Origin: an uncultured Muribaculaceae bacterium
GTDB lineage: Bacteria > Pseudomonadota > Alphaproteobacteria > Rs-D84
Assembly (NCBI GenBank): GCA_965231035.1
Contig: OZ246409.1
Span: forward strand, 151,101 to 183,100
DNA: 32,000 nt
Reading direction: 5' to 3'
In this document: piece by piece, positions 1-29,022 of the stretch
How positions within the stretch are numbered: the first letter of the stretch is position 1
How the letters are laid out: every line of letters starts with the position of its first letter
Notes under the pieces: model-generated
What the model saw: the letters and a program-made list of their open reading frames with translations, nothing else
What the model was told of the DNA's origin: nothing
Database searches by the model: none
Made by a program: the position numbers and the translations under genes

Positions 1-327
1 ATAACCAGCAGTACAAGTCGTTTTTATAGTAGAATAAGCAGTTGCAATATATGTACCATCTGTAGTTTGTATTGGGCACTGATTTCGTGCGGTTAATCCA
101 GTATCACCAGATCTATAACCTGTTGGACACAATGTGCGTCCATAATTTACTGCGGGGTTATTTCTTGTAAAGCCAGTGCAATAATAGGTTGCAGTACATG
201 TTGTGCAAGCTGAACCATTCCAATAAGTTCCAGCTGAACATGTTACTTTGGCGGCAAAAGCATCGTTTGCAAATGTGACTGCAAACACACAAAAAAAGAC
301 CCGCAGAAAAATTCTGAGTTTTTTCAA
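1..327 (-). CDS. Cys-rich repeat exported protein, second paralog; N-terminal 109 codons only, continues past the window edge
   Basis: Not in the ORF track because it has no stop in the window. The reverse-strand frame is open from 327 to 1. TTG at 327-325 has GGGGAG 5 nt upstream and an in-frame stop at 363-361, with no other start codon between. It translates (M)KKLRIFLRVFFCVFAVTFANDAFA/AKVTCSAGTYWNGSACTTCTATYYCTG...LCPTGYRSGDTGLTARNQCPIQTTDGTYIATAYSTIKTTCTAGY. That is a signal peptide followed by the same entry module and 60-aa unit (Cys offsets 0/17/38) as the 2416-aa protein. Confidence 0.65.
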   Translation of the reverse strand, partial: MKKLRIFLRVFFCVFAVTFANDAFAAKVTCSAGTYWNGSACTTCTATYYCTGFTRNNPAVNYGRTLCPTGYRSGDTGLTARNQCPIQTTDGTYIATAYSTIKTTCTAGY

Positions 328-395: not shown

Positions 396-3300
396 TTACA
401 TATTATCGTCATAAACTGAATATTGGGTACCTTGTGAATTAACACGTAAAGACCCCTTGGTATCAGTTGTCATATTTCCATAATAACTTGTGCCATCAAC
501 TTTTACATTTAACGATGGTGTGGTTTTTTTATCGCTACGAAGATAAACTTTTTCATCGTTAACATGTAATAATTTTCCACAATCTCCAGATTCATCTGCG
601 CCCAAACCATAACCAATTGTCATAGTACCAGCAGGACATGCTGTTCTGGTAATTGAATCATTTGCAGACCAATAACCAGTTCCAACATCCACACAAGATC
701 CATCAGATAAATAATACCCACCTTGACATCCACCAACTGTACACAAACCAGTTACAGTATTATCACTGTTCCAAACGGCTGTTGACCAAGAACTTTGATA
801 TTCGCCGCCACCAGCAGAACATGCAGCGTCACAGAAAGACAAGCCAGGCACACTGGTTGTTGTTCCATCCTGACAAGCTGAGCAATAACCAGATGCAGCT
901 GTGCTGTATGAACCAATTGTGCAGTTTGTACAAGTTGATGCCCCTATATCTGCATAGGTTCCAGCCAAGCATTCAAACAATGGTCCAGTGCTGCCATAGC
1001 TTACAAGTGTAGAAGGACAATAGTGTCCCGCAGTGCAAGTTGTTGCCGTTGTATCATTTGCCGTGGCAATATAAGTACCTGCCGTAGTCTGCCATTTACA
1101 TCCTGTTTGTGCGGTTACGCCAGTTCCACCATCATCGTAATTGATTGGACATTCAGTTCTTGTTCCAGTGCTGCCATAATTAACCAACGAAGCAAGACAA
1201 TAATACCCAGCAGTACATTTTGATTGTGTCGTTGTGTTAGCTGTTGCTATAAATCTTCCAGCTGTCGTTTGAATCTGACATTGAGTATTTGCAGTTTTAC
1301 CCGGGTCTGTGTTTGCGGTATATCCACCAGGGCAAGATGTACAACTGCTTTGACCCGACCCAGACCACAATGTGCCTGTACATTGTATAATTGAACCGGT
1401 ACTACCATATGTGACCAAAGCAGTTGGACAATAGCTGCCAGCAATACAATCAACTTGTGTTGTAGAATATGGGGTGTCAATATATTTACCACCAGTTGTT
1501 TGCAATGCACACTGATTTTCTGAATAAAGACTCGTACCGCCAGCTGTGTAACCTGTTGGACAAGCTATCAAAGATCCTGTGTCACCGTAAGTAACCAATG
1601 TGGACGGACAATAATATCCTGATAAACATCGATTCTGAGAAGTGGAATTAGCGGTTGGAATGTAGAAACCTGAACTTGTTAAAATTTTACACTGGTTTTG
1701 TGCAGAAAGCCCCGTGCCACCATTTACATAATTTGTTGGACATGCAACCTGGGGTCCTGTGCTACTCCATCCCACCAGACCACCGGGACAATATGTTCCA
1801 GCGGCACAAATTGTTTCAGTTGTAGCATTTGATGTCGCAATATAATATCCGGCCGTTGCTTGAAATTTACATCCGCTTTTTGATGTTACGCCTGTACCAC
1901 CTTTATCATAATTAGTTGGACAAACAGTTATAGATCCGGTGCTGCCATAATTTATTGATGCAGAGTCACAATAGTATCCAGATTCACAAGTTGTTAATGT
2001 TATATCATTTGCCGTTTTAATATAACTTCCCGCGGTTGTTGTCCATTTACATTCAGTTATTGAGCCTTTACCTGTTCCGCCATTTACATAATTTGTTGGA
2101 CATGCTACAACCGAGCCAGTGCTGCCATAAGTAATCAAAGTTGCCGGACAATAATTACCAGCAGTGCAGGTTGTTTGTGTTGTTGCCCCTGCAGTTGCAA
2201 TATAATACCCTGCGTTTGTTTGCAATGCACACTGATTCTGTGCAGAAAGACCAGTTCCACCTTTATCATAATTTGTTGGGCAGGTCGATCTGGTTCCGGT
2301 GCTGCCATAATTTACTAATGCAGCCAGGCAATAATATCCAGTTGTACAAGTTGTTTGTGTGGTCGAATTTGCAGTTGCAATCCAATTTCCCGCGGTTGTT
2401 TGAATTTGGCATTGTGATTGTAATGTTTTACCAGCTGTCGTGTTTGCATCATATCCAGTTGGACAAGTGGTGCAACTGGACGCGCCCGCCGCCGAATATG
2501 TTGCACCTGTACACTGAGTTCTGGAACCTGTGCCGCCATAGGTAACCAATGCCGCAGGGCAATAATATCCAGCCAAACAATCAACCTGTGTCGAAGAGTT
2601 TGGTGTATCTATATACTTACCTGCTGTTGTAGTAAGTTGACATTGAGTGATTAAAGTTTTTCCAGCTGTTGTATTATTTGTATATCCTGTTGGACAGGCA
2701 GTACAGCTGGACGAACCAGATCCAGAGTATGTCGCACCAGTACATTGCCCTCTGACTCCAGTACTACCATAATTTACTAAACTTGCAGGACAATAATATC
2801 CAGCCGCGCACATTGTTTGTGTTGAATCATTAGCAGTCGCAATATAATAACCAGCATTCGTTTGTATCTGACAATCCGTTTGTGCTGCGGCGCCAGTTCC
2901 ACCATTCATATATCCTGTCGGGCAGGTTGTTAAACCTTGATCAGATGTGCTAGTACTGAATGTTCCACCTAAACAATAACTTCCAGCTGTACAAGTCGAA
3001 CAAGAACCTGAATTGGCTGGTAAATACTGTCCCGCACTGCAAGTAATAGAAGTAACTGTCCATTGAGCATACAATGTAGTAATAGTTGTCGAATCCCAAG
3101 ATTTTGCAGATGCACCAGAAGAGGTGTAATACTGTGTTCCGCCACTGGCTGAATCATAGTAACCATTAAATGTATAACCTGTGCGAGTTGGCATAGTTGC
3201 ACTTGGCATTGCCGCGGCATATGTAACAACAACCGAATCTGTACCCCCAGAACCACTCTCTTTATTAAATGTTATGGTATATGTGTTTGGGGCGCACGCG

Positions 3301-6300
3301 TTATATTCATCAAGAGAATATCCTGCTATACAATTAGCAGAACAATTGTTAGTTACACTATTATCAGTATTCCAAACGGCGGTTGCCCAAGAGCTTACAA
3401 ATTCATTACTGTTTGAACATGTTGTCTCGCAAGCATTAGGAGTAAGTTCACCCGTAGTCATTCCATTTTGACAAGCTATACACGAACTTGCGCCATCAGA
3501 ACTGTATGACCCCGCCATACAATTTTCACAACTAGAGGAACCTGATACAGAGTATGTTCCTGCCGAACATTGTGTCATATCACCAGTGTTGCCATATGAA
3601 ACCAAAACAGCCTGGCAATAATAACCAGCAGGACAAGTTGTTGTAGAAGTGTCATTTGCTGTTGCTATATAATTTCCAGCCGTAGTTTGTATCTGACATT
3701 GAGTTATATCTGTTTTACCAGCATCGGTATTTGATGTATATCCAGTCGGACATGCAGAACAAGTTCCCGATCCAGATGTTGAATATGTTGCACCTGTACA
3801 CTGTGTTCTGCTACCTGTGCTGCCATAATTAACTAATGATGCAGGACATGAATATCCAGCAGTACAAGTTGTCGTACTGGTGTCATTTGCTGTGGCAACA
3901 TAAGTACCAACAGTTGTTTGTATCTGACATTGTGTCGCAGATGTTTTTCCACCAGTCGTATTGGCTGTGTAATTTGTTGGACATGCTGTACAACTGGATG
4001 CTCCAGATTCCGAATATGTTGCACCAGAACATTGCACTTGTGCACCAGACCCACCATAACTTACCCATGCTGCGGGACAGTAATATCCAGCTGGACATGT
4101 TGTTGTTGTTGTATCGTGAACATTCTTAATATAAGTCCCCGCAGTTGTATAGAATGTACATTGATTTTGTGCAAACATTCCAGTTCCACCATCATCATAG
4201 TTGGTTGGACATGGTGACATAGCACCTGTATCACCATAATTTACAGTTGTTCCTGGACAATAATATCCCCCAGGGCAAATTGTTTCAGAAGTATCTTGTT
4301 CATTTGCAATATAATAACCATCAGTTGTTTGGAACATACATTCATATTCAGATGTTAAGTTACCGCCACCATCATCATAATTTTCTGGACAAGATGCTAT
4401 ACCTTGATCTGATTCTGTGCTGACATTATAAGTTCCACCGACGCAGTAGCTATCCGTAGGACAGTCAGAACAAGTTTCTAAATTCACTGGTAAATAAGTT
4501 CCAGCATTGCATGTTACAGATGAAAGTGTCCACTGGGCATAGAGTGTTGTAGATGATGTTTTATCCAAAGATTTTGTGGATGTACCTGTTGCGTCATAAT
4601 ATTGTGTTCCCCCGCTTACAGCATCATAATAACCAATAAATTTATATCCAGATTTTGTTGGTGTGGTTACACTCGGCATAGCAGAGTCATACGTAGCTGA
4701 TACGGATGAAGTTCCACCAGTTCCAGATTGTGCATCAAAAGTAATGTTGTATGTATTTGCTGTCCAATGTGCATATAATGTTGCACTAGAAGTTTTATTC
4801 CATACACTCGCAGATGCACCAGAAGATGTGTAATACTGGGTTCCACCACTTATCGCATCATAATAACCAGCAAACGTATATCCTGTTCTTGTTGGCATAG
4901 TTGCAGATGACATTGCAGAATTATATGGTGCAATAACAGATGCAGTGCCACCAGTTCCACCTTGTGCATCAAGTGTTACTAAATACATAGTTGGCGAACA
5001 TGTACCTCCTGAAATACCATACCCAGCAGCACAACTTACTACTGCGCATATATTAGAAACTTCATTACTGCTGGAATCCCAAGTTGCCACGTCCCATTCT
5101 GTTTCATAGCCAGTATAATTAGAGCAGTTTATATCACATTCTGTTAACCCTTCATCGGATGTGGTTGAACCACCTTGACATGGAATACATGAATCCGAAG
5201 CATCTTCACTGTATGATCCAACTGCACAATTATTGCATGTTGACGAACCAGATAAAGAATAAAGCCCAGCAGGACAACCAGTTGAACTGCCAGTACTTCC
5301 ATAATTAATCAATGAAGCAGGGCAGTAATATCCAGCAAAACATGTCGTTAAAGTTGTATCATTTGCGGTTGCAATATATGTTCCAGCAGTTGTTTGTATT
5401 TGACACTGATTCTGAGCAGTTAAACCAGTTCCACCATCATCATAATTAGTTGGACAGGATGATAAACCAGCGTTTGCAGATGTTGAACGTGTTGCAGTCA
5501 CACCTGTGCAATAATTATTTGATAAACAAGTAGAACAAGCACGACTGGTCTCGGTTGTATTATATAAAAAGTAATTACCAGCAGAACAAGTCAAACTCCA
5601 AGGACAAGCATTAGCCCCACTACCAGTTCCAACATAGCTGGCAGCACTTGGTTTATTAGAACAACTGGAACATGTTTCAGCACCAGAACCATAGTAATAA
5701 TTATGTGCAGCTTTATAGCTTCCAGATGAGCAGGTGCTAACAGTATTACTATTTGCGTTCGCAATGTATTTATCCGCTGTCAATATTGTGCTAGGGATAT
5801 AACATGATGTAGCAGAAGTAGCACTTGAGGCCGAGGTTGTATAATTACTGCCCAATGTTGTACATGCTGTAATACCTTGAGCAGAGCTGGCGTTATAATA
5901 ATATCCTCCACCAGGGCAATAACTACCTGGAGAACAATTTATACAATAGCTGCTATCTGCGGGCAAATATTGACCAGGATTACATGTAATGAAATTCGGT
6001 GTGTATTGTGCATATAATGTTGTGTCGTATGGTATCGGCCATTCGGAGATCAAAGGTTGACCAGAAGCGTCATATATATAATCACCATAATAATCATCCT
6101 CGTAATACCCCTGAAAGGTATAATTATTTATAAAAGGGGGGCCTTGCCATGTCAACTCTGGCAATGAATCGCCATATTGAACTGTTAGAGGACCAGAATC
6201 ATATTGTCCACCTTGTCCCCCCGCATCATCAAAAGTTATTGTGTATGTATTTGCTGAACATGTTGCATTATAACTACCATTATTAACTATATTGCCATAA

Positions 6301-7646
6301 CCTTCATTACAAGATGTTGTGTAGGTACAAACATTACTTACAACAGATAACGAACAACTTGCATTAACTGCAGCACATGCAGTACATGGATTTGCAACAC
6401 CTGTGCTGCCATATGAAATTAATGCAGCTGGGCAAGAATTATTCGCAGGGCATGTTGTTGCAGTTGTTGCATTTGCGGTTGCAATATAAGTACCAGCAGT
6501 TGTTTGAAATTTACACTGATTTTGTGCAGTCAGAGAACTGCCACCAGATGTATAATTCGTAGGGCATGTACTTAATCCACCTGTTGCACCATATCCACCA
6601 TAACTAACCAACAACCCTGGACAATAATAACCACCACCCGGACAAGATGTTTGTGTGGCAGAATTTGCAGTTACTACATAAAATCCCGCAGGAACATTCA
6701 TCTGGCACTGTGATGCTGATGACTTTTGAACGGCAGTATTTGCATTATAACCTGATGGACATGTGGTACAGCTGGATGCACCACCAGATGCATATGTTGC
6801 ACCTGTACATTGAATCATATTTCCAGCAATACCATAAGGAATCAAAGTCGCCGGACATTGATATCCGGGTGGACATGATATCTGGGTGGTTCCCCCAGCA
6901 GTTACATAATACCCGCCCGTAGTTTGAAATTTACATTGACTTTGTGATGTTACCGAAGTTCCACCATTAACATAGTTGGTAGGACAAGAATTTATACCTT
7001 GGTTTGAAGCACTTGTAGTAAAAGTTCCACCAGTACAGTAACTTCCCGCAGTACAAGCAGAACAACTGGTGGCATTAGCAGGTAAATAAGTTCCAGCACT
7101 GCATGTTACAGTGTTTGCTGTCCAATGTTCATACAAGTATGTTGAATCTGAAGAAATAGTTGTTGGAGATGGTAAAACACCACTTGCAGGTATTATCTGT
7201 GTTCCACCACTGGTCGCTGTATAATATCCTGCAAAAGTATAATTTGTTCTGGTTGGAATTGTAACACTGGTGATTGTTGTACTGCCATCTGTCCATCTTA
7301 CACCAAGTATTTCATAAATATATCCAATACCACTGTTTGTAGTGTTAGAATAATTTCTCAATGTAATTTCATATGTTGGTCTAGGACAATAATTTGACCC
7401 TGGACAATAATATCCTTGTCTCCCTGTATAGTTATCATAATCCTGACAACTACAACATCTGTTATCTGTCGCTTCTTCATTAATTTCTTCGCCTGCACAA
7501 CCATCATCAGTGCCGTTACACAAGTAATATCCTTCGACACAAGAGCTATAATCTTTGTAAACAGGGCAGCTATAACCAGCAGCAAACGCATTACCGGCAA
7601 AAAGTACCATTAATAAAAACGTAAAAAGCCTTGCAAATCGTGGCAT
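396..7646 (-). CDS. Giant exported cysteine-rich repeat protein (2416 aa): Flg_new/InlB-B-repeat-like modules plus ephrin-receptor-like (GCC2_GCC3-type) Cys-rich units; putative surface adhesin or host-interaction protein
   Basis: Single uninterrupted ORF. The N-terminus MPRFARLFTFLLMVLFAGNAFA/AGY looks like a Sec signal peptide. Five Cys-free modules match the Listeria-Bacteroides repeat pattern (YTITFD..GG......P..PT+.GY.F.GYY......LYAQW). Units such as CTGATYSGSGSSSCTACPTGYTNNTTAGKTLITQC resemble the C..C..G.Y......C..CP.G pattern of ephrin-receptor-like repeats. About 157 Cys by hand count. Confidence 0.9.
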   Translation of the reverse strand: MPRFARLFTFLLMVLFAGNAFAAGYSCPVYKDYSSCVEGYYLCNGTDDGCAGEEINEEATDNRCCSCQDYDNYTGRQGYYCPGSNYCPRPTYEITLRNYSNTTNSGIGYIYEILGVRWTDGSTTITSVTIPTRTNYTFAGYYTATSGGTQIIPASGVLPSPTTISSDSTYLYEHWTANTVTCSAGTYLPANATSCSACTAGSYCTGGTFTTSASNQGINSCPTNYVNGGTSVTSQSQCKFQTTGGYYVTAGGTTQISCPPGYQCPATLIPYGIAGNMIQCTGATYASGGASSCTTCPSGYNANTAVQKSSASQCQMNVPAGFYVVTANSATQTSCPGGGYYCPGLLVSYGGYGATGGLSTCPTNYTSGGSSLTAQNQCKFQTTAGTYIATANATTATTCPANNSCPAALISYGSTGVANPCTACAAVNASCSLSVVSNVCTYTTSCNEGYGNIVNNGSYNATCSANTYTITFDDAGGQGGQYDSGPLTVQYGDSLPELTWQGPPFINNYTFQGYYEDDYYGDYIYDASGQPLISEWPIPYDTTLYAQYTPNFITCNPGQYLPADSSYCINCSPGSYCPGGGYYYNASSAQGITACTTLGSNYTTSASSATSATSCYIPSTILTADKYIANANSNTVSTCSSGSYKAAHNYYYGSGAETCSSCSNKPSAASYVGTGSGANACPWSLTCSAGNYFLYNTTETSRACSTCLSNNYCTGVTATRSTSANAGLSSCPTNYDDGGTGLTAQNQCQIQTTAGTYIATANDTTLTTCFAGYYCPASLINYGSTGSSTGCPAGLYSLSGSSTCNNCAVGSYSEDASDSCIPCQGGSTTSDEGLTECDINCSNYTGYETEWDVATWDSSSNEVSNICAVVSCAAGYGISGGTCSPTMYLVTLDAQGGTGGTASVIAPYNSAMSSATMPTRTGYTFAGYYDAISGGTQYYTSSGASASVWNKTSSATLYAHWTANTYNITFDAQSGTGGTSSVSATYDSAMPSVTTPTKSGYKFIGYYDAVSGGTQYYDATGTSTKSLDKTSSTTLYAQWTLSSVTCNAGTYLPVNLETCSDCPTDSYCVGGTYNVSTESDQGIASCPENYDDGGGNLTSEYECMFQTTDGYYIANEQDTSETICPGGYYCPGTTVNYGDTGAMSPCPTNYDDGGTGMFAQNQCTFYTTAGTYIKNVHDTTTTTCPAGYYCPAAWVSYGGSGAQVQCSGATYSESGASSCTACPTNYTANTTGGKTSATQCQIQTTVGTYVATANDTSTTTCTAGYSCPASLVNYGSTGSRTQCTGATYSTSGSGTCSACPTGYTSNTDAGKTDITQCQIQTTAGNYIATANDTSTTTCPAGYYCQAVLVSYGNTGDMTQCSAGTYSVSGSSSCENCMAGSYSSDGASSCIACQNGMTTGELTPNACETTCSNSNEFVSSWATAVWNTDNSVTNNCSANCIAGYSLDEYNACAPNTYTITFNKESGSGGTDSVVVTYAAAMPSATMPTRTGYTFNGYYDSASGGTQYYTSSGASAKSWDSTTITTLYAQWTVTSITCSAGQYLPANSGSCSTCTAGSYCLGGTFSTSTSDQGLTTCPTGYMNGGTGAAAQTDCQIQTNAGYYIATANDSTQTMCAAGYYCPASLVNYGSTGVRGQCTGATYSGSGSSSCTACPTGYTNNTTAGKTLITQCQLTTTAGKYIDTPNSSTQVDCLAGYYCPAALVTYGGTGSRTQCTGATYSAAGASSCTTCPTGYDANTTAGKTLQSQCQIQTTAGNWIATANSTTQTTCTTGYYCLAALVNYGSTGTRSTCPTNYDKGGTGLSAQNQCALQTNAGYYIATAGATTQTTCTAGNYCPATLITYGSTGSVVACPTNYVNGGTGKGSITECKWTTTAGSYIKTANDITLTTCESGYYCDSASINYGSTGSITVCPTNYDKGGTGVTSKSGCKFQATAGYYIATSNATTETICAAGTYCPGGLVGWSSTGPQVACPTNYVNGGTGLSAQNQCKILTSSGFYIPTANSTSQNRCLSGYYCPSTLVTYGDTGSLIACPTGYTAGGTSLYSENQCALQTTGGKYIDTPYSTTQVDCIAGSYCPTALVTYGSTGSIIQCTGTLWSGSGQSSCTSCPGGYTANTDPGKTANTQCQIQTTAGRFIATANTTTQSKCTAGYYCLASLVNYGSTGTRTECPINYDDGGTGVTAQTGCKWQTTAGTYIATANDTTATTCTAGHYCPSTLVSYGSTGPLFECLAGTYADIGASTCTNCTIGSYSTAASGYCSACQDGTTTSVPGLSFCDAACSAGGGEYQSSWSTAVWNSDNTVTGLCTVGGCQGGYYLSDGSCVDVGTGYWSANDSITRTACPAGTMTIGYGLGADESGDCGKLLHVNDEKVYLRSDKKTTPSLNVKVDGTSYYGNMTTDTKGSLRVNSQGTQYSVYDDNM
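972..2924 (-). repeat. Array of ten Cys-rich units (aa 1575-2225), lengths 60, 77, 77, 60, 60, 60, 60, 60, 77, 60 aa
   Basis: Unit-initial Cys at aa 1575, 1635, 1712, 1789, 1849, 1909, 1969, 2029, 2089 and 2166; the exit module starts at 2226. No indels are needed and the Cys offsets are the same as in the other arrays. The 60-aa consensus is CPTNY[DV].GGTG..AQNQC..QTTAG.YIATAN.TT.TTC.AGYYCP..LV.YGSTG.... Confidence 0.85.
3057..3284 (-). repeat. B-repeat module 5 (aa 1455-1530)
   Basis: TYTITFNKESGSGGTDSVVVTYAAAMPSATMPTRTGYTFNGYYDSASGGTQYY...TLYAQWT. At the DNA level, 3115-3212 is 79/98 identical to 4819-4916 (module 3) in my by-eye alignment. Confidence 0.75.
3570..4391 (-). repeat. Array of four Cys-rich units (aa 1086-1359), lengths 60, 60, 77, 77 aa
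   Basis: Unit-initial Cys at aa 1086, 1146, 1206 and 1283; the exit module starts at 1360. Cys offsets are 0/17/38/44 in the 60-aa units and 0/13/16/34/55/61 in the 77-aa units. Confidence 0.8.
4527..4988 (-). repeat. B-repeat modules 3 and 4 in tandem (aa 887-963 and 965-1040)
   Basis: MYLVTLDAQGGTGGTASVIAPYNSAMSSATMPTRTGYTFAGYYDAISGGTQYY...TLYAHWTAN, followed by TYNITFDAQSGTGGTSSVSATYDSAMPSVTTPTKSGYKFIGYYDAVSGGTQYY...TLYAQWT. Confidence 0.75.
6003..6248 (-). repeat. B-repeat module 2 (aa 467-548), Flg_new-like, Cys-free
   Basis: TYTITFDDAGGQGGQYDSGPLTVQYGDSLPEL...NNYTFQGYYEDD...TTLYAQYTPN. Confidence 0.6.
7116..7376 (-). repeat. B-repeat module 1 (aa 91-177), Flg_new-like, Cys-free
   Basis: TYEITLRNYSNTTNSG...IPTRTNYTFAGYYTATSGGTQI...STYLYEHWTAN. 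Confidence 0.6.
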
Positions 7647-7676: not shown

Positions 7677-7706
7677 ATTATAGAAAAAATACCAAATGTG
7701 TTGCAA
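7677..7706 (-). promoter_or_regulatory. Candidate promoter of the giant gene
   Basis: The reverse strand reads TTGCAA (7706-7701), an 18-nt spacer, then TATAAT (7682-7677). A purine-rich AAGAGAG lies about 13 nt upstream of the ATG at 7646. Confidence 0.45.
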
Positions 7707-7762: not shown

Positions 7763-8060
7763 ATCAGATAAACAGGACATAGCTGGCGGTTTCCGTCAGA
7801 GGAAAGTCCGGACACCATGGGACAGCATAGCGGCTAACGGCCGCGCGGGGCAACCCGACGATCAGAGCAACAGAGACGAGTCGATTAAATTCGAGTGAAA
7901 CGGGCAATCTCTATGCGGTGCAACTTCAAATAGGTTCTCGTACAATCCGTCCCAGATTGAGAACGGGTAGAAGGCTTGACATTTGCAGTAATGCAAAATG
8001 CAGATTAATTATGTCCACCATAGCAATATGGAACAGAATCCGGCTTATCGTTTATCTGAC
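7763..8060 (+). ncRNA. rnpB: RNase P RNA, bacterial type A, compact (about 298 nt)
   Basis: Conserved P4 strands GAGGAAAGTCCGG (7799-7811) and ACAGAATCCGGCTTATCG (8033-8050). Also CAACAGAGA, GTGAAA, AAATAGG and GGGTAG..GCTTGA blocks collinear with E. coli M1 RNA. P1 pairs tcagataaac (7764-7773) with gtttatctga (8050-8059), and P2 pairs ggacat with atgtcc (8011-8016). Confidence 0.88.
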
Positions 8061-8065
8061 TTATT

Positions 8066-8096
8066 AAAAAACGCGCCAAACGGCGCGATTTTTTAC
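8066..8096. terminator. Bidirectional intrinsic terminator shared by rnpB (+) and tolA (-)
   Basis: Stem CGCGCC (8072-8077), loop AAAC, stem GGCGCG (8082-8087). It is flanked by an A-run upstream and a T-run downstream, so there is a U-tract on both strands. Confidence 0.8.
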
Positions 8097-8812
8097 ATAA
8101 TCTTTCCACTTATCGGATAGAATGTTAATTGGATTTTTTCCCACTTATCAAATTCTGAAACAGGTAACATTTTGAAAGGTTGGCAAGTTTTAACAGCACT
8201 GCGAATTGTTTCCAAAACATATGCGAACGCAGGATCACTGCTTTCACGTGCCGCAGATTCAAACCACAAATCACGAACAGTTCCATTTTGATACATTGTC
8301 AAATGTGCAACTGCACGAATATCGGTAATGTCACTGCGTCCTGTATCAACTGTCCAACAACGGGTCAGGGCAACACGCAAAGCATCAACAACCGAAACAG
8401 TCATCGTGCGATTTAATGAAACAGTTTCACGATTTACGCGAACTGTCATTAATTTCTTTGGTAAATTTTTATCACTTTTGGTGGTTGTTTTCTTTTTTTC
8501 TGCAACCATACTGGGGGTTTTTATCGGTTTATCATCACCGAAATCTTCATCAGCTTTGGCCTTTTTATTTTTTGACTCTTGCTGTTTAGTTTCTTGGATA
8601 TCGGGTGTATCGGTATTATAAAGTTTGGTTTCATCACCAGTAACTTTTACATGATTCAAATCTATTTCCATAATTTGAACACGATCTGGGGCAACCAATT
8701 GTGCGCGTTTTATAACAATCACAAACGAAGTAATCATAAATGCAACAATTACCAAATGCCCCAAAACGGACATCAAAATATTTTCAGAAGAAAAATGCTT
8801 ATTATCATTCAT
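8093..8812 (-). CDS. tolA: TolA-like protein (N-terminal TM anchor, Lys/Glu-rich linker, TolA/TonB-type C-terminal domain)
   Basis: TM segment VLGHLVIVAFMITSFVIVI, a charged linker (KQQESKNKKAKADED..KKKTTTKSDK), a C-terminal globular domain, and a position directly after tolR. Confidence 0.6.
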   Translation of the reverse strand: MNDNKHFSSENILMSVLGHLVIVAFMITSFVIVIKRAQLVAPDRVQIMEIDLNHVKVTGDETKLYNTDTPDIQETKQQESKNKKAKADEDFGDDKPIKTPSMVAEKKKTTTKSDKNLPKKLMTVRVNRETVSLNRTMTVSVVDALRVALTRCWTVDTGRSDITDIRAVAHLTMYQNGTVRDLWFESAARESSDPAFAYVLETIRSAVKTCQPFKMLPVSEFDKWEKIQLTFYPISGKIM

Positions 8813-8817
8813 TTGTA

Positions 8818-9219
8818 TTATTTATCAAGCCTGGTACGAAGCCCAACACGTTGGAAACCAGCATCTTTCAGACGACCCATCATAGACATCACCGCACCAT
8901 AATCTGCGTGTGAATCACCGTTTATCATAATTGTCAGATCGGCATTTTCTTTACGCATCGCGGCAATTTTATTAACAATTTCATCGCGTTCCATTGGGCT
9001 GGCACCCAAATAATATCGACCACCGGAATCAACACTGATTTGAATTGCGTGATCATTACCGGTCAGACTGGAAACACCCGCACGTGGCAAATCCAAATCA
9101 ATTCCCGTTGTCATCATTGGTGTCGTGACCATAAAAACTGCCAACAACACCGTCATAACGTCTATCATTGGGGTCAAAGACAAATTTACATCCGAACGTC
9201 TTGAATTTCTTCGTGCCAT
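8818..9219 (-). CDS. tolR: TolR/ExbD-family biopolymer transport protein
   Basis: N-terminus MARRNSRRSDVNLSLTPMIDVMTVLLAVFMVTTP...DLDLPRA matches the ExbD/TolR signature; 133 aa. Confidence 0.85.
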   Translation of the reverse strand: MARRNSRRSDVNLSLTPMIDVMTVLLAVFMVTTPMMTTGIDLDLPRAGVSSLTGNDHAIQISVDSGGRYYLGASPMERDEIVNKIAAMRKENADLTIMINGDSHADYGAVMSMMGRLKDAGFQRVGLRTRLDK

Positions 9220-9220
9220 A

Positions 9221-9787
9221 TTATTTATACTCCGATTTTAATTTTGAATATATCAACGTATCACAAACGCCACAACATTTTGCATATGAACTTTGACGTG
9301 TTATTCCCTCAAGCACATAATTATTTTTCTTTGCTATATTTTCAGATTTTATATTATCTGAATCAATTTCCATTTGTATTCTGTTAAAGCCTAATTCAAA
9401 AATCTGTTTTTCCAGTGCTTTCAAAGCTTCTGTCATAAAACCATGACCTGTCTCGGAATCTGATAACCAGTACCCAATTTCACAGCTGGCAACATCCCAA
9501 GGATTTATATTAAAAAATCTAATTCTTCCTATAAATCTATCATTTTTAAAAATTCCAAAACAAAAACCTGTTTTATTATTCCATTGTTCATCACGTTTTT
9601 GTAACTGTTTAAGCATATCATCTGGATTTTTTATATATTCAATAAATCCCTGCCATTGTTCCAAACTTTCACGCGAAGCATCAATAACATCAAATATCAT
9701 TTGCGCATTTTTTTGTGACGGTTCAATGCGACGCAATTCAAGCCGTTCTGTTTTTATAATTTCTGGAAAATTAGACAACTCTATCAT
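9221..9787 (-). CDS. GNAT N-acetyltransferase, RimJ/RimL-like
   Basis: 188 aa. Contains TERLELRRIEP...IGRIRFFNI......EIGYWLSDSETGHGFMTEALKALEKQIFELGFNRIQMEIDSDNIKSENIAKKNNYVLEG, which is typical of Acetyltransf_3-type GNATs. Confidence 0.75.
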   Translation of the reverse strand: MIELSNFPEIIKTERLELRRIEPSQKNAQMIFDVIDASRESLEQWQGFIEYIKNPDDMLKQLQKRDEQWNNKTGFCFGIFKNDRFIGRIRFFNINPWDVASCEIGYWLSDSETGHGFMTEALKALEKQIFELGFNRIQMEIDSDNIKSENIAKKNNYVLEGITRQSSYAKCCGVCDTLIYSKLKSEYK

Positions 9788-9800
9788 ATTAAAAACTTTT

Positions 9801-10295
9801 TTATTTTTTTGTCTTCATATCTTTTACTGCATCGTCCAATTTGTTATACAAATCATCTGACCTTTTGGAAAAATATTGATATGCAACCGCTGCTGGAACC
9901 GCAGCAATTAAACCAAGTGCGGTTGTGCCCAATGCAGTTGCAAGTCCTGGTGCAATAACACCAATACTGACCGATTGATTCGCACCAATGGATGCAAAAG
10001 AATCCATAACACCCCAGATTGTTCCAAATAATCCAACGAATGGTGCAACATAAGACAACATAGACAAGAACCATAAATTTTTATCAAAAGGTCTGATTAG
10101 CCTATCTACAACAACATCCAAATTGTCGCCATTTTTAACTTTGGTTGGATTTAATCTTTCAAATTTCCACATGCGAATTTTCTCGATTATAATCGCCCAG
10201 GATATAACGCTGCCTGCGACCAGAATCAGCGATATTGCCAAAACCATAAAATCGCCTTTGGTAAACAGCGAAAGAAGTGAAAAGTTATTTGTCAT
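9801..10295 (-). CDS. tolQ: TolQ/ExbB-family proton channel subunit, short form (164 aa)
   Basis: Three TM segments. The conserved TM2-TM3 region is APFVGLFGTIWGVMDSF...APGLATALGTTALGLIAAVPAAVAYQYF. It sits in ybgC/tolR/tolA context. Confidence 0.8.
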   Translation of the reverse strand: MTNNFSLLSLFTKGDFMVLAISLILVAGSVISWAIIIEKIRMWKFERLNPTKVKNGDNLDVVVDRLIRPFDKNLWFLSMLSYVAPFVGLFGTIWGVMDSFASIGANQSVSIGVIAPGLATALGTTALGLIAAVPAAVAYQYFSKRSDDLYNKLDDAVKDMKTKK

Positions 10296-10307
10296 TTGTT
10301 TTCCTTT

Positions 10308-11114
10308 TTATTTATTATTTTCATTTAAATTAAACTTTACATATTTTTCAGTCAAGGATTTTAATTCATCAACTGTTGGTTTAATATAAAAAAGCCGCTT
10401 TCCATTTGTTAATTCATTTGAAAGTTCCAAACGATTCTTACCAAAAAAACTTACCAAGGTTTTGTAAGCTTTCATATCATTAACTTTTGGGATAAATATA
10501 ACAATTCCCTTTTTACTATCATTATATATTCCATTTGTTTTTAGAATTTCTTCTATCTTGTCAAAATTTTTATTAACAGAATTCAAAAAATTCTTAACTT
10601 TATCTACATTAGAATAAATTCTTTTATAGGCATCTTTTGATTCTGAATCATCAGCTAAAACACCCATATCTTTGTTTATAAAATTCCGTTGTGGACCAAT
10701 TTTAACAGAAATTACTGGATATTTATTTTTTCTAATATCACCGTATTTATTATCCAATGCAAAAGCAATCTGTTTTAATTCATCACTTTCATAATATTTC
10801 ACAATATCTTTACTTGAACCTTTATTTAAATATGCATCTTCGCTTACACCAAAAAACGGGTACCATTTGCCAGTTGGCACATCTTTTTTGCCTCCTATAC
10901 CGCTGGATAAATAAAAAGGTATACGGAACCCATTTATATTCACAACTACTAAAACACGGTCAAGAATATTTACAAATTGAGATGAACCTTTAAATAAAGG
11001 CAATGTTTTATCTAATAAACCATTGCTCCCGGCACTGTAAGTTTCAAACGGAATTTCTTCCAAAAAAACATCGTGATTGGCGATTTTTGTTAAAATTGCA
11101 TTGGAACTATACAT
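10308..11114 (-). CDS. Hypothetical protein, 268 aa, no motif recognised
   Basis: Long ORF in operon register, with a 2-nt gap to ybgC and a 12-nt gap to tolQ. It is very AT-rich compared with its neighbours. No signal peptide or TM segment is evident. Confidence 0.6.
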   Translation of the reverse strand: MYSSNAILTKIANHDVFLEEIPFETYSAGSNGLLDKTLPLFKGSSQFVNILDRVLVVVNINGFRIPFYLSSGIGGKKDVPTGKWYPFFGVSEDAYLNKGSSKDIVKYYESDELKQIAFALDNKYGDIRKNKYPVISVKIGPQRNFINKDMGVLADDSESKDAYKRIYSNVDKVKNFLNSVNKNFDKIEEILKTNGIYNDSKKGIVIFIPKVNDMKAYKTLVSFFGKNRLELSNELTNGKRLFYIKPTVDELKSLTEKYVKFNLNENNK

Positions 11115-11116
11115 TT

Positions 11117-11494
11117 TTATTTCAATATTTTTATAATATCTTCTGGTATGCGTTTTGGCTTCATATCGCCACCAATATATGCCGCAGTACCAACGAGTAT
11201 AGCATAAACATCGTTGTCTTTCACGAACTTTTGTTCAACATTCAGTGATGCCGCGCCCAGTTTTGCCAATCTGGTTTCAACAACAAAATCATCCGCCAAC
11301 CGTAATGGTTTAAGATATTTCATATTCAGTTCTTTGATAACAAAACCAATATCGCCATTTTTTGGCACAGTGTCCATCATCCACTTCATTCTGGCACGTT
11401 CAGCAATTTCAACATAACGTGCATGGTAAACAATACCACCAGCATCTGTATCTGCATACGCAATAGAAAATGGAAATTTATGTATTCTATTCAT
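11117..11494 (-). CDS. ybgC: Tol-Pal-associated acyl-CoA thioesterase (4HBT/hotdog fold)
   Basis: 125 aa. FSIAYADTDAGGIVYHARYVEIAERARMKWM matches the YbgC/4HBT N-terminal active-site motif. It lies upstream of tolQ. Confidence 0.85.
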   Translation of the reverse strand: MNRIHKFPFSIAYADTDAGGIVYHARYVEIAERARMKWMMDTVPKNGDIGFVIKELNMKYLKPLRLADDFVVETRLAKLGAASLNVEQKFVKDNDVYAILVGTAAYIGGDMKPKRIPEDIIKILK

Positions 11495-22784: not shown

Positions 22785-23333
22785 ATGAAAGAAATAATTG
22801 TTCTTATGGGTGGCCCAGGTAGCGGTAAGGGCACAGTCGCGGAAAAGATTTGTGATTATATCAAAGTTAATAAAATTGAAACTGGCGCTTTGTTCAGATC
22901 TTTGCCTGCAGATTCCGAGATATCAAAAATAATATCAACTGGTACATTGGTTCCAGACACTGAATTATTCAAGTTAATTGAATCCAAAATTTATAAAACC
23001 CAAGATATACTTCTTGATGGATTTCCCAGAACATTACCACAAGCAAAATGGCTGATTGAAAACTATTCCGATGACTTTTCTATAAAAATAATCTATTTGG
23101 ATATTCCAGAAGAAATTATGAAACAAAGAATAAAAAATCGCCTGAATAATGGGTCAACAAGATCTGATGATAACAATGATTCTGTAATATTAAAACGTTT
23201 GGATAATTTTCAAGAAATTACCATACCTGCTATAAATTGGTTGCACGAAAATGAAAAAATAAAGTTTTTTTATATTGATGCAACACCAGATAAAGAAAAC
23301 GTTATTAAACAAGTCTATAGAATATTAAATTAA
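22785..23333 (+). CDS. adk: Adenylate kinase family NMP kinase, short-LID type
   Basis: P-loop GGPGSGKGT, LLDGFPRTLPQAKWL, and a short LID segment NGSTRSDDNNDSVILKRL; 182 aa. Confidence 0.7.
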   Translation: MKEIIVLMGGPGSGKGTVAEKICDYIKVNKIETGALFRSLPADSEISKIISTGTLVPDTELFKLIESKIYKTQDILLDGFPRTLPQAKWLIENYSDDFSIKIIYLDIPEEIMKQRIKNRLNNGSTRSDDNNDSVILKRLDNFQEITIPAINWLHENEKIKFFYIDATPDKENVIKQVYRILN

Positions 23334-24214
23334 GATCTTTTTCTTTTTACAAAAGAATATAAACCATATCCACCCAACAGCATAACAATAAATATGAATA
23401 TTATCCATGCTGCTTGTACACTTTCAGCAAATGGCAGTTTTACATTCATTCCATAATATCCAACAACAATTGTTGGTGCGATTAAAATAATATTCCACAT
23501 AGTCAAACGATTAATGTAGGTATTTGAATCCATGTTAATCACACTTTCGAATGTTTCTTTGATGGATGCTAGCATTTTTGTGTAACTGGTAACAACTTCT
23601 ATTGCCTGGTGCAGTTCAATACGAACATCTTCGGATAATTCTTTATTATCTTCTTCTTTGATAAAGCCACGCATTTTTTCAAGCTTTTCCAAAACGGCTA
23701 AATTACCTTTTAAACCAGCCATATACAAAGTATAACTGTTTTCAACTTCCAGCAAAGCCATCAGCTCTTTTTTGCGAATTTTTTCTTGCAACACTTTCTT
23801 TGAATCGAAAACCTTTTTATTCAGTTGTTTCAGGAATTTCAAATAAGACTCAGCAATATAATACAATATATTTATAATAAAAATTTCCCGCGATGTTTTT
23901 TCTGACTTTTTTATTTTATCCAAAATATCACATCTTTTACGACAAACAGTTATAACACGTTTATCTGTATAAATAATAGATAACGGCTCGGTATGCCACA
24001 TTGTATCTGTTTCGCGATTAACAATAGGAAATCGAACAATTATAACCTTATAATCATCTTCATGCTCGACACGGGGTTGTTCATCAGGATCCAAAATATC
24101 GGATATTGTGTCTTCATCAATTTTATATTCTCTTTGAAGTTTTTCAAAATCTTCATGATCAGGATTACCAACATTAACCCAAGAGAAACTTTTTAACTTT
24201 TCTGTATCAAACAT
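23330..24214 (-). CDS. corA: CorA-family magnesium/cobalt transporter
   Basis: C-terminal signature YGMNV (VVGYYGMNVKLPF) between two TM helices; 294 aa. Confidence 0.85.
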   Translation of the reverse strand: MFDTEKLKSFSWVNVGNPDHEDFEKLQREYKIDEDTISDILDPDEQPRVEHEDDYKVIIVRFPIVNRETDTMWHTEPLSIIYTDKRVITVCRKRCDILDKIKKSEKTSREIFIINILYYIAESYLKFLKQLNKKVFDSKKVLQEKIRKKELMALLEVENSYTLYMAGLKGNLAVLEKLEKMRGFIKEEDNKELSEDVRIELHQAIEVVTSYTKMLASIKETFESVINMDSNTYINRLTMWNIILIAPTIVVGYYGMNVKLPFAESVQAAWIIFIFIVMLLGGYGLYSFVKRKRS

Positions 24215-24238
24215 TTTAAACCTTATAATATTTTATGA

Positions 24239-26008
24239 TTATTTTATAAAACCTTCGGATTGCAGCTTCCACATTTTTGCGTAAATTCCATTTTTCTTTT
24301 TTATCAGCTGTGAATGTTTACCACTTTCAACGATTTTACCCTTGTCCATTACAATAATTCTGTCCATTTGTCTCAGTGTACTTAATCTATGTGCAACTGC
24401 CAAGGTTGTTCTATCGCGCATCAGATTTGCAAATGATTTTTGTATTGCCGTTTCTGTTTCAGAATCCAATGCACTGGTTGCTTCGTCTAAAACCAGAATA
24501 GGGGCATTTTTTAATATTGCATGTGCAATCGCAATACGTTGACGCTGACCACCGGATAAAGTTATTCCGCGATCACCAACATATGTTTCATAACCATGTT
24601 CTGTACGCATTATAAAATCATGTGCGCGTGCTTGTTTCGCCGCAGAAATAATATCTTCCTTTTTTACACTTTTTTTACCATAGCTGATATTTTCCCCAAA
24701 AGTGCGGTTAAACAAAACTGATTCTTGGGGAACAAATGAAATATTGTTTCGCAAAGATTCTTGCCGAACATCAGAAACATTTTTTCCATCAATTTTGATT
24801 GTTCCAGAATTAACATCATACAGACGCATTAATAAATACAACAATGTAGATTTTCCAGCACCAGAAAGTCCAACAATTCCAACTTTTTCGCTAGATTTTA
24901 TGTGTAGATTCAAATTATGAACAACCCATTCATCCTTGTACTTGAATGATACATTATTAAAATCTATCTGTGTACTTTTGGGTTTCAATTCAGTTGCATT
25001 CTTTTTATCTGTGATATTTACTGACTTTGATATACTTGCATAGCCTTGGCGTGCCGACGCCCAATTTTCTGTAATATCCGGCAAAGACCAAGTAAATTCA
25101 CGAACCAAGTTCATCATCATAAAAAATGCAGTTATTGTAAATGCAATATCCGGTAAACCAATCTGACCAAGACCATAAAGCCAAGTAATTATGAAAAGCA
25201 AACAAGCAATACAAAACTTTTCAAATAAAAACGGTACAGCCCAGAATTTTCTGACATAATAGTTTGATTTTTGTCTTGCTGCGGCGTGTTTATCTCTGAA
25301 TATATTCAAATATTTTGTTTCGTCAAATTTGTGTGAAAATAATTTTATATTTAAAAAATTAGAAACAGAATCAACAAATTTTCCCACCAAAATTGAACCT
25401 TGCTTAGTAGCATAAACCTCGGCATCTGTCATGTCTTTTAAATGAAAACTGCACCAAATCAAACGAAATCCTGCAACAACTATAAACAATGTAAGAACAG
25501 CCCAATGAACATGAGATAACATAGAAATATTTATAATAACAGATGCAATTAACGTTATAAATATTTTTGGATATTCCATAGTTATTTTTGCGTAATTGTT
25601 CAGAACATAATTTGCCTGTTCAACTAAAAATCCAGAAGAATTATCTTTAAAAAAAGCCACTGATTGTTGTGAAATATTTTCATAAACTTTTTCAGACATA
25701 TGTTTTTTTATAATTGGTCTTAATTTTCCGCTTATCCAAGATTCTATTATTTCCAAGACCAGAAAAAAAGCATGTAAAGATACAACCAACAAAACAATAG
25801 GTAATAAAACAGATAATAAATTGTTTGCAACACCAAATCCAGAAACACCAACCTCATCCAAAAACCATTTAACAGTAAACTGATTTATAACACTGTTAAA
25901 AATATCAACAGCAGCCATGGCAATAACGCTGAATATAATATAAGGCCAATATCTTTTTAAGGATTGTTTATAAAATCCAAACAAAGTCTTAGGAAACAAA
26001 CTCTTCAT
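24239..26008 (-). CDS. ABC exporter, fused permease/ATPase (ABCB/MsbA-like)
   Basis: N-terminal six-TM domain. Walker A GLSGAGKST, signature LSGGQRQRIAIA, Walker B ILVLDEATSALD, H-loop AHRL. Confidence 0.88.
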   Translation of the reverse strand: MKSLFPKTLFGFYKQSLKRYWPYIIFSVIAMAAVDIFNSVINQFTVKWFLDEVGVSGFGVANNLLSVLLPIVLLVVSLHAFFLVLEIIESWISGKLRPIIKKHMSEKVYENISQQSVAFFKDNSSGFLVEQANYVLNNYAKITMEYPKIFITLIASVIINISMLSHVHWAVLTLFIVVAGFRLIWCSFHLKDMTDAEVYATKQGSILVGKFVDSVSNFLNIKLFSHKFDETKYLNIFRDKHAAARQKSNYYVRKFWAVPFLFEKFCIACLLFIITWLYGLGQIGLPDIAFTITAFFMMMNLVREFTWSLPDITENWASARQGYASISKSVNITDKKNATELKPKSTQIDFNNVSFKYKDEWVVHNLNLHIKSSEKVGIVGLSGAGKSTLLYLLMRLYDVNSGTIKIDGKNVSDVRQESLRNNISFVPQESVLFNRTFGENISYGKKSVKKEDIISAAKQARAHDFIMRTEHGYETYVGDRGITLSGGQRQRIAIAHAILKNAPILVLDEATSALDSETETAIQKSFANLMRDRTTLAVAHRLSTLRQMDRIIVMDKGKIVESGKHSQLIKKKNGIYAKMWKLQSEGFIK

Positions 26009-26088: not shown

Positions 26089-26165
26089 TGGTCGGGGTAG
26101 CGGGATTCGAACCCACGACCCCTTGCACCCCATGCAAGTACTCTACCAGGCTGAGCTATACCCCG
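26089..26165 (-). tRNA. tRNA-Pro (anticodon GGG), with encoded CCA
   Basis: The reverse complement folds as acceptor CGGGGUA/UACCCCG, D-arm GCUC..GAGU, anticodon stem CUUGC/GCAAG with loop AUGGGGU, T-arm GUGGG-UUCGAAU-CCCGC, discriminator A, CCA; 77 nt. Confidence 0.9.
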
Positions 26166-26284
26166 ACATCCGTGAATTTATACAATTACAATTTATTAAA
26201 ATCAAGTGCATATTTTCCACTTGCACGAATCGGTGCATTGTGATTAGTATTCGGCATATAAAAAAACTCAAAGGGAGATGTCTG

Positions 26285-26662
26285 GTGATAGTTGGAATTG
26301 GTATAGATATGGTCGAGTGCCAAAGATTCCTGGATTGGTCGGCATTCAAAAAACAGAGAATATTTACAAAAAAAGAATTAGAGTATGCTGAAAACGACAA
26401 CGCAAATGTCGAAAAGCATTTGGCAAATTTTTGGGCCGCACGCGAAGCTTGCTTGAAAGCTATGGGAACAGGGTTCGGTGAAGAAATTGCCTTTTCAGAT
26501 GTTTCTGTTATCCACACAGACTCTGGCAAACCAGAACTTCTTATCATCGGCGGTGCCAAGGCTGCATTAAAAGAACTGGCAGGTTGTACTGCACGTGTTC
26601 ATCTTTCTATAACAGATCAAAATGATTATTCAGCTGCAATAGTAATAATAGAAAATCAATAA
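26285..26662 (+). CDS. acpS: Holo-[acyl-carrier-protein] synthase
   Basis: (M)IVGIGIDMVECQRF...FTKKELEYA...HLANFWAAREACLKAMGTG...SGKPEL...HLSITDQNDYSAAIVIIE. GTG start at 26285 with AAGGGAG 7 nt upstream. The track's longer ORF from 26123 overlaps the tRNA. Confidence 0.85.
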   Translation: MIVGIGIDMVECQRFLDWSAFKKQRIFTKKELEYAENDNANVEKHLANFWAAREACLKAMGTGFGEEIAFSDVSVIHTDSGKPELLIIGGAKAALKELAGCTARVHLSITDQNDYSAAIVIIENQ

Positions 26663-26674: not shown

Positions 26675-26707
26675 AAAAATGCCGCAATTTTTGCGGCATT
26701 TTTTTAT
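26675..26707. terminator. Bidirectional intrinsic terminator shared by acpS (+) and the 573-aa gene (-)
   Basis: Stem atgccgcaa (26679-26687), loop ttt, stem ttgcggcat (26691-26699), flanked by an A-run and a T-run. Confidence 0.8.
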
Positions 26708-28986: not shown

Positions 28987-29013
28987 TTATAAGTTCCTTC
29001 ATTTGATTATTAA

Positions 29014-29022
29014 TGGTATAAT
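29014..29022 (+). promoter_or_regulatory. Extended -10 promoter element for the prepilin peptidase operon
   Basis: TGgTATAAT (TG at 29014-29015, TATAAT at 29017-29022), about 40 nt upstream of the ATG at 29061, which has an SD GGGGA. Confidence 0.4.

Follow-up and report, generated by a model that had tools for sequence, protein, structure and literature searches.

A giant exported cysteine-rich mosaic protein of an Rs-D84 alphaproteobacterium belongs to a lineage-specific family with conserved ends and a variable middle

What kind of protein is encoded by a single 7.25-kb gene that lies beside the Tol cluster of an uncultured alphaproteobacterium, and what might such a protein do for the cell? 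We analysed a stretch of 32,000 nucleotides (the window; positions 151,101 to 183,100 of contig OZ246409.1, GenBank assembly GCA_965231035.1), which was deposited under the name of an uncultured Muribaculaceae bacterium and is placed by GTDB in the alphaproteobacterial group Rs-D84. A reading made from the letters and their open reading frames (ORFs) alone, here called the sequence-only reading, had described the product as an exported giant Cys-rich mosaic that joins InlB-type B-repeats to ephrin-receptor-type cysteine modules. The giant protein is a member of a large lineage-specific family with conserved ends and a variable middle. We consider it moderately probable that it is a Sec-exported, disulfide-stabilised, hypervariable rod-like surface protein, an adhesin or a coat, of a fast-evolving family.

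The ORF (396..7646, minus strand) was uninterrupted over 7.25 kb, started with ATG and encoded 2416 amino acids (aa); the gene makes up about 0.85% of the 849-kb contig. The protein contained exactly 157 Cys (6.5%) and 20 CxxC motifs, and was otherwise dominated by T (16.5%), G (11.9%), S (11.7%), A (9.6%) and Y (8.2%). Its N-terminus, MPRFARLFTFLLMVLFAGNAFA|AG, had the basic, hydrophobic and A-x-A layout of a Sec signal peptide by sequence reading. The length, the N-terminus and the Cys count agree with the exported giant Cys-rich mosaic proposed earlier. A scarcity of charged residues had also been claimed; basic residues were indeed scarce (K+R = 60), and acidic ones (D+E = 132) formed local patches. 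The number of N-x-S/T sequons (42) was no higher than in shuffled sequences (38.8 ± 5.2), and the idea of N-glycosylation was dropped.

The gene is real and not an assembly artefact. Self-BLAST of its DNA showed no exact repeats of 30 bp or longer, and internal repeats were at most about 75% identical. The sole tandem repeat found in the DNA by Tandem Repeats Finder, a weak one (period 231 bp, 2.1 copies, 73% matches) lay within Cys-rich region 3. The same protein, 100% identical, was called on 8 contigs, and it is held by NCBI as HNY25310.1 under the name 'InlB B-repeat-containing protein [Alphaproteobacteria bacterium]', given by the Prokaryotic Genome Annotation Pipeline (PGAP). The intact frame, the diverged repeats and the identical copies speak against the misassembly or frameshifts that the sequence-only reading had considered. 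The GC content of the gene (40-43%) was the highest in the window and fits the Gly/Ala/Thr/Cys codon content. From its N-terminus to its stop codon the protein was divided as follows.

7581..7646, minus strand: signal peptide, aa 1-22, MPRFARLFTFLLMVLFAGNAFA then AG, read from sequence
7386..7580, minus strand: N-terminal Cys-rich domain, aa 23-87, 9 Cys, opening with AGYxCP.Y..Y.SC..GYY
7104..7385, minus strand: Flg_new module 1, aa 88-181 (PF09479, 23.6 bits, E = 5.8e-5, scanned alone)
6258..7103, minus strand: Cys-rich region 1, aa 182-463, 24 Cys; start unit, 60/77-aa units and a 46-aa CxxC...C cap
5985..6257, minus strand: Flg_new module 2, aa 464-554 (PF09479, 24.1 bits, E = 3.8e-5)
4998..5984, minus strand: Cys-rich region 2, aa 555-883, 28 Cys; closes with the end unit 791-883
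4998-5276, minus strand: end unit, aa 791-883 (Ephrin_rec_like, 24.9 bits)
4512..4997, minus strand: Flg_new modules 3 and 4 in tandem, aa 884-1045 (PF09479, 39.0 and 40.9 bits)
3294..4511, minus strand: Cys-rich region 3, aa 1046-1451, 34 Cys; start unit, two 60-aa units, two 77-aa units and end unit
3294-3569, minus strand: end unit, aa 1360-1451 (Ephrin_rec_like, 25.3 bits, E = 1.3e-5)
3042..3293, minus strand: Flg_new module 5, aa 1452-1535 (PF09479, 37.9 bits)
693..3041, minus strand: Cys-rich region 4, aa 1536-2318, 60 Cys; start unit, eleven 60/77-aa units and end unit
693-971, minus strand: end unit, aa 2226-2318 (Ephrin_rec_like, 22.7 bits)
399..692, minus strand: C-terminal domain, aa 2319-2416, 2 Cys, family-defining
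396-398, minus strand: stop codon

All five Cys-free stretches matched Flg_new when scanned alone, and they did so at the positions given beforehand for five Listeria-Bacteroides modules. The whole protein scored 95 bits with Flg_new over 5 stretches (E = 3e-27; Pfam gathering score 27) and 25.7 with TIGR02543 (List_Bact_rpt; cut-off 20.95). The N-terminal Cys-rich domain (aa 23-87) had no match in Pfam or NCBIfam. The spacing of Cys residues was strictly periodic, with 60-aa units of 4 Cys and 77-aa units of 6 Cys. The 60-aa units followed the spacing C-x16-C-x20-C-x5-C and the consensus CPTNY..GGTG...Q.QC..QTT.G.YI.TAN.TT.TTC.AGYYCP..L..YGSTG, and the 77-aa units consisted of the same core with a leading C-x12-C-x2. 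All four Cys-rich regions began, right behind a Flg_new module, with a start unit (C.AG.YLP.....C..C..G.YC.GG), and a 93-aa end unit closed regions 2, 3 and 4 (791-883, 1360-1451 and 2226-2318). The even Cys count per unit that had been claimed was found in all Cys-rich regions (24, 28, 34 and 60) and in the C-terminal domain (2), and not in the N-terminal domain, whose 9 Cys make the total of 157 odd. The 60/77-aa units were only 40-73% identical to each other in protein sequence, which indicates that the copies are old; a recent tandem expansion was dropped for that reason.

To place the protein among its relatives, a homolog search was run on 5.8 billion proteins. More than 512 relatives were returned and the top 120 were inspected. 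A C-terminal domain of about 100 aa was common to 76 of these 120, with the pattern …GYW…TR..C..GLTTIGYGAGADE..DCG+.L…K.YLRS.KKTTPSLNV…YYGNM…TTYSV.DDSM; the C-terminus of the giant protein itself reads YSVYDDNM. A signal peptide followed by AGYxCP.Y..Y.SC..GYY was present in 59 of the 76. The combination of modules had been thought unusual, but it is no one-off, as PF09479 and PF07699 occurred together in at least 9 of the top 120. When a profile of the C-terminal domain was scored against 1.84 billion cluster representatives, 690 were found at E <= 1e-3, 401 at E <= 1e-10 and 145 at E <= 1e-30. Among the 690 the domain almost always formed the very end of the protein, and the longest of these proteins had 5143 aa. 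Residues 2318-2416 of the giant protein scored 152.8 bits against the family profile, of which the sequence is itself part. An identical 60-aa tail was shared by 21 distinct 90%-identity clusters with lengths of 1799-2668 aa.

The C-terminal domain had no match in Pfam, NCBIfam or PDB sequences, and its profile gave nothing significant against the PDB. AlphaFold2 (AF2) predicted six beta-strands at aa 2356-2412 with a predicted local distance difference test score (pLDDT) of 88-94. The model of aa 2226-2416 had a mean pLDDT of 60 and was poor outside the last ~60 residues, because the homologs could not be aligned there. The family was described nowhere in the literature searched. The sequence is already public under a generic annotation, and the C-terminal domain is new.

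The family was mapped further by its position on the chromosome, where the following features adjoin the giant gene.

1..327, minus strand: 5' part of a tandem paralog, which continues beyond the window; TTG at 327-325, Shine-Dalgarno sequence AAGGGGAG at 340-333
7677..7706, minus strand: promoter-like TTGCAA-18 nt-TATAAT, 10/12 consensus positions, consensus match only
7764-8063, plus strand: RNase P RNA gene rnpB, bacterial class A, 217.8 bits
8072-8087: strong hairpin, bidirectional terminator-like, for rnpB and tolA
8093-11494, minus strand: Tol cluster ybgC-(268-aa ORF)-tolQ-(GNAT acetyltransferase)-tolR-tolA-like

The conserved order of the locus was tolA–rnpB–[giant]–secA. In the window, rnpB sits between the tolA-like gene and the giant gene, and the promoter-like site lies ~30 nt upstream of the giant ATG, inside the 117-bp gap to rnpB. 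The giant gene also has a ribosome-binding context. As rnpB and the bidirectional terminator separate it from the tolA-like gene, the giant gene is probably its own transcription unit. Neither tolB nor pal was found downstream of the Tol cluster in the window; the giant gene fills that position. Two genes of the Tol cluster look like insertions, since both are missing from the same cluster of a human-gut relative (L082): the GNAT gene and the 268-aa ORF, whose surroundings are low in GC (29.5% at 10-11 kb). Directly downstream of the giant gene is the paralog, of about 864 aa, with a signal peptide by sequence (KKLRIFLRVFFCVFAVTFANDAFA then AKV), 60/77-aa units, an end unit and the C-terminal domain, and without Flg_new. 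Its DNA was at most 75% identical to that of the giant gene, and recent gene conversion between the two was therefore dropped.

A human-gut homolog (P0020, 2664 aa) on a contig of 915,865 bp was found in the same gene order as in the window: L13-ArgRS-histidine kinase-response regulator-x-hydrolase-RuvB-x-YbgC-TolQ-TolR-TolA-like-[giant]-…-SecA-DnaE-RsmH. The flanking proteins of the two contigs were 60-91% identical, except the ORF at the NUDIX position, which had no BLAST match; the giant protein and P0020 showed 28% identity with many gaps. The same locus was occupied in relatives from Hadza gut and in two metagenome-assembled genomes (MAGs) labelled 'Zod_Metabat'. In the latter the order was giant-paralog-SecA, with a first gene of only ~880 aa in one MAG. 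One family member (P0023) was located at a different locus.

In the species of the human-gut relative, three alleles of 1799, 2443 and 2664 aa were found at the same locus, the two shorter ones in two further genomes. Their DNA flanks were 98.7-99.1% identical, and the alleles shared a 5' end of ~530 bp (90-93%) and a 3' end of 1754 bp (98%). Between these ends they were rearranged mosaics, with a Flg_new match recorded in one of the three. The giant locus is thus a hotspot of conserved position whose middle is variable and recombining. We infer that the variation reflects diversifying selection.

Which bacteria carry the family? A scan of one genome per GTDB species, with alignment of the C-terminal domain, confirmed 135 encoded relatives. 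According to their record titles, the carriers were uncultured Alphaproteobacteria, 'Rickettsiales' of the UMGS set of uncultured human-gut species, and Candidatus Enterousia from the gut or rumen of chicken, human (Hadza, Brazilian), yak, sheep, deer, buffalo and mouse. A few relatives were in bins named Bacteroides or Muribaculaceae, which may be mis-binning. Among the 80 best of the 135 relatives, at least 11 assemblies (species representatives) had two or more loci. The C-terminal domains closest to that of the window (70-73%) were those of the two 'Zod_Metabat' MAGs, a label that we take to refer to Zodletone spring, an anoxic sulfidic site. The window itself is housekeeping alphaproteobacterial chromosome of ~39% GC with genes for GcrA, RuvB, TolQ/R, ArgRS, L13/S9, trigger factor and S1. 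The family occurs in reduced-genome, Enterousia-like MAGs of the order Rs-D84, mostly from animal gut, and the genomes of Enterousia-like carriers were ~0.85-0.92 Mb in size. Enterousia genomes have been described as 0.75-1.0 Mb, fermentative and without respiratory chains, and the bacteria were proposed to be obligate symbionts or parasites that probably depend on a partner; the paper is silent on these giant proteins (PMC12306168).

The fold of the Cys-rich units was examined by profiles and by structure prediction. The sequence-only reading had expected Ephrin_rec_like (PF07699) matches in the 77-aa units, and these did not appear: a pair of 77-aa units scored 9.2 bits (E = 1.4), the 60-aa units had no match, and no Pfam model detected the main 60/77-aa units. 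Only the 93-aa end units matched, with 24.9, 25.3 and 22.7 bits when scanned alone against a gathering score of 23.1; the whole protein scored 22.6 bits. Phmmer of the whole protein gave zero matches in the PDB, and a profile search of the PDB with the unit alignment gave nothing significant. The AF2 model of aa 1533-1788 (a start unit, one 60-aa unit and two 77-aa units; 20-row alignment) had a mean pLDDT of 95.8 and a predicted template modelling (pTM) score of 0.71, and consisted of short beta-hairpins only. In Foldseek searches of the PDB with this model the best matches were to Chlamydomonas Mst1 (8wa2, 9b4h and 8tx1; E = 4e-5 to 3e-3, probability ~1), followed by ELAPOR1 (E = 7e-3) and then by EphA2/EphA4 ectodomains, many TNFR-family receptors and the cysteine-rich domain (CRD) of CaSR (E = 0.3-1). 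Identity to these eukaryotic structures was ~20% and TM-scores were 0.2-0.3, low values that are expected for flexible rods.

As judged from the model, the 60/77-aa units share the disulfide-ladder fold of Mst1, ELAPOR1, Eph and TNFR CRDs, with putative disulfides. The likeness to ephrin-receptor/TNFR-type Cys units thus stood at the level of fold (AF2 and Foldseek), and it failed at the level of sequence profiles except for the near-threshold end units. Domains of Mst1 were reported to be highly similar to the ephrin-receptor cysteine-rich domain, with a disulfide ladder that lends robustness to an extracellular filament (PMC10602792). Similar Cys units of the 60/77-aa type were seen in giant proteins outside the family (P0003/P0010, P0022/P0034 and P0105), for example together with prepilin-type N-termini (GFTLIEI…) or DUF7631 (PF24634) repeats. 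Their presence there indicates that the disulfide-ladder unit is widespread in metagenomic bacteria and largely uncovered by Pfam. The giant protein also shows that bacterial surface proteins make major use of disulfide-ladder rods of the TNFR/ephrin-receptor type, which Pfam mostly misses and which the literature regards as essentially eukaryotic.

How might such a protein work? We propose that the chain would be exported by Sec and undergo oxidative folding in the periplasm, and that it would then reach the surface, with the invariant termini handling export, envelope attachment or both. A stiff, protease-resistant rod could then hold the B-repeat modules off the cell, where they may bind the surface of a partner or host. 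The middle would change fast through recombination among diverged repeats and with paralogs, and such a rapid turnover suggests diversifying pressure from immunity, phages or changing partners. The protein is presumably displayed on, or attached to, the surface of a diderm cell; Tol genes adjoin its gene. Of the uses considered, an adhesin or contact fibre for a partner-dependent cell is favoured, and a protective variable coat resembling Giardia variant surface proteins (VSPs) is its main rival. The earlier suggestion of an adhesin or surface coat remains the best functional guess.

Several observations weigh against this proposal. Pfam and NCBIfam scans of the giant protein gave no mechanism of outer-membrane translocation or anchoring, and Foldseek of the C-terminal domain against the PDB and BFVD gave no match with E < 0.3. 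The ~78 disulfides are hard to square, in an anoxic habitat, with Enterousia lacking respiratory chains (PMC12306168). The allele of the window was identical on all 8 contigs, and mosaicism was seen in the sister species only. Finally, a few members (P0012, P0039 and P0061) carry further domains after the 'C-terminal' domain, for example ~110 aa or leucine-rich-repeat-like repeats, which suggests that the domain is a folded module and not strictly a terminal sorting peptide.

It is possible, though we regard it as doubtful, that the role of the protein is that of a protective coat with antigenic variation and not that of an adhesin. In that case a dense layer of protease-resistant Cys-rich rods would shield a fragile reduced-genome cell and, through its variation, help it to evade immunoglobulin A (IgA) or phages, a function comparable to that of Giardia VSPs or ciliate surface antigens. 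The conserved termini, the mosaic middle and the several paralogs per genome are as such a coat would have them, as are the 20 CxxC motifs, the 6.5% Cys, the gut habitat of most relatives and the disulfide-ladder fold, which is tied to robustness in Mst1. However, the Pfam VSP family was not matched at E <= 1, the protein has neither a transmembrane segment nor a CRGKA tail, and there was no evidence of expression switching or silent cassettes. Identity of at most 75% to the DNA of the paralog means that no recent gene conversion took place, and binding and spacer proteins are the more usual setting of Flg_new modules. We likewise offer only tentatively the idea of a bacterial counterpart of the protist variant surface proteins, in which a coat of disulfide-laddered rods on Rs-D84/Enterousia-like symbionts would be encoded at a dedicated hypervariable tolA-rnpB-[giant]-secA locus, would vary by recombination with paralogs and would use a novel terminus-based export or anchoring. 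If this is true, ~78 disulfides would have to be formed and maintained in each molecule, in an anaerobe that reportedly has no respiratory chains.

It is unlikely that the protein is released as a soluble product, such as a component of matrix or biofilm or a shed binder. It does have a signal peptide without a recognisable lipobox, LPXTG, beta-barrel or transmembrane segment, but the strict conservation of the C-terminal domain at the end of hundreds of variable proteins points to a shared function that is cell-bound or machinery-bound.

A recent acquisition from a eukaryote (protist or animal), by which the cell would mimic host receptors of the ephrin-receptor/TNFR type, we consider very improbable. 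The solved structural matches are all eukaryotic, and Ephrin_rec_like is regarded as having emerged in eukaryotes, its rare bacterial cases being viewed as horizontal transfer (PMC6993872). The bias to eukaryotic matches, however, partly reflects which structures have been solved; identity to them is ~20% with low TM-scores, and the sequence-profile searches of the PDB had no significant match. The closest homologs are bacterial, some of them non-family proteins with Flg_new or prepilin-type N-termini. The family has termini of its own at a conserved place on the chromosome, and its units are old and diverged (40-73%). The mimicry of, or transfer from, a protist host on which the sequence-only reading had speculated found no support in this comparison: a recent transfer from a protist is unsupported, and an ancient exchange may have taken place. 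The least credible alternative, an assembly artefact or decaying pseudogene of low-complexity repeats, has the repetitive, biased composition and the MAG source in its favour and is contradicted by the open frame of 7.25 kb, the lack of exact repeats of 30 bp or more with internal identity of at most 75%, the identical protein on 8 contigs and in NCBI, the conserved Cys spacing and a very confident AF2 model.

The favoured adhesin or contact fibre bears on the biology of the lineage. Enterousia and Rs-D84 bacteria are widespread in human and livestock guts, have genomes of less than 1 Mb and are thought to depend on partners (PMC12306168). The giant protein is a prime candidate for mediating or shielding contact with host, partner cells or phages, given its share of the contig, the tandem paralog, the copies elsewhere in relatives and its place as the fastest-evolving spot in a conserved neighbourhood. 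In addition, the new conserved C-terminal domain could mark an undescribed sorting or anchoring route.

The remainder of the window showed some further features. On the minus strand, 26704-28425 encodes a 573-aa protein with no Pfam match and only weak coiled-coil-type NCBIfam matches, whose N-terminal half is a charged coiled coil, whose long C-terminal half is rich in Pro, Glu and Val, and which has a single transmembrane segment (ALYYVLLVVLIVLSVFTLWMY). Next, at 28429-30523, come the gene for the cell-cycle regulator GcrA (minus strand) and two plus-strand genes, one for a type IV prepilin peptidase (Peptidase_A24) and one for a 337-aa exported protein whose Cys are scattered and which matched no family. 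These genes may be the remnant of a Tad/Flp pilus or of a locus like that of type 2 secretion systems (T2SS), and they could be relevant to the exit of large proteins from the cell. A tRNA gene (26092-26165, minus strand) overlaps the 5' end of the ORF for a phosphopantetheinyl transferase (ACPS; 26123-26662, plus strand), so that the listed TTG start of this ORF is probably too far upstream. The CorA and ABC-transporter genes lie in a stretch of low GC content (23001-26000; 30-34%, with ~39% elsewhere).

The giant protein shares features with several known systems. Giant modular bacterial adhesins (RTX adhesins of type 1 secretion systems (T1SS), autotransporters and Bap/SiiE-type proteins) are likewise encoded by multi-kb genes and have tandem extracellular modules, a long stalk and variation among strains. 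The giant protein differs from them in having a Sec-type signal and no RTX, beta-barrel or Ig-like repeats, and disulfide-rich modules are unusual for bacterial adhesins. A T1SS RTX adhesin was rejected on the N-terminal Sec-type signal and the lack of any RTX or haemolysin-type Ca-binding match. Adhesins of the autotransporter or type 5 secretion system (T5SS) class are marked by a C-terminal outer-membrane beta-barrel of ~250-300 aa; no barrel was found with Pfam or NCBIfam, and the C-terminal domain has only ~60 confidently folded residues. Cargo of the type 9 secretion system (T9SS; TIGR04183 / PF18962) was rejected as well, the C-terminal 99 aa being unmatched at E <= 1 in NCBIfam and at E <= 10 in Pfam, as was lipoprotein anchoring, since there is no lipobox.

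With InlB B-repeat and Listeria-Bacteroides proteins the giant protein has in common five bona fide Flg_new modules. Unlike InlB it has no leucine-rich repeats (LRRs), inter-repeat region, GW or LPXTG anchor; it is mostly a Cys-rich rod, and its host is a presumably diderm alphaproteobacterium. With the class 1 internalin models NF033188 and NF033189 it reached 64.5 and 55.7 bits (cut-offs 1050 and 1600), with the B-repeat part alone aligned, and Pfam found no LRR. The likeness to Giardia VSPs and ciliate antigens is functional: these too are multigene families of Cys-rich proteins with CxxC motifs, in which one terminus is conserved while the body varies, and some of them come from anaerobic gut dwellers. 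The giant protein, in contrast, has no VSP-family match, ends in a soluble beta domain and is found in a bacterial host; VSP membership was rejected because Pfam VSP is not matched at E <= 1 and the CRGKA tail is lacking.

Beta-hairpin and disulfide architecture is common to the units and to Ephrin_rec_like/TNFR CRDs (PF07699, TNFR_ELAPOR1_6th PF23091 and NCD3G PF07562; ELAPOR1, EphA2/A4, TNFR1, OX40, CD40 and CaSR), whereas the units of the giant protein have their own Cys spacing and no receptor context. The tandem ephrin-receptor-CRD-like domains of Mst1 are the best structural match of the bacterial 60/77-aa units. In contrast to the bacterial protein, Mst1 is a glycoprotein of a eukaryote and carries nine Ig domains as well as a polyproline-II helix.

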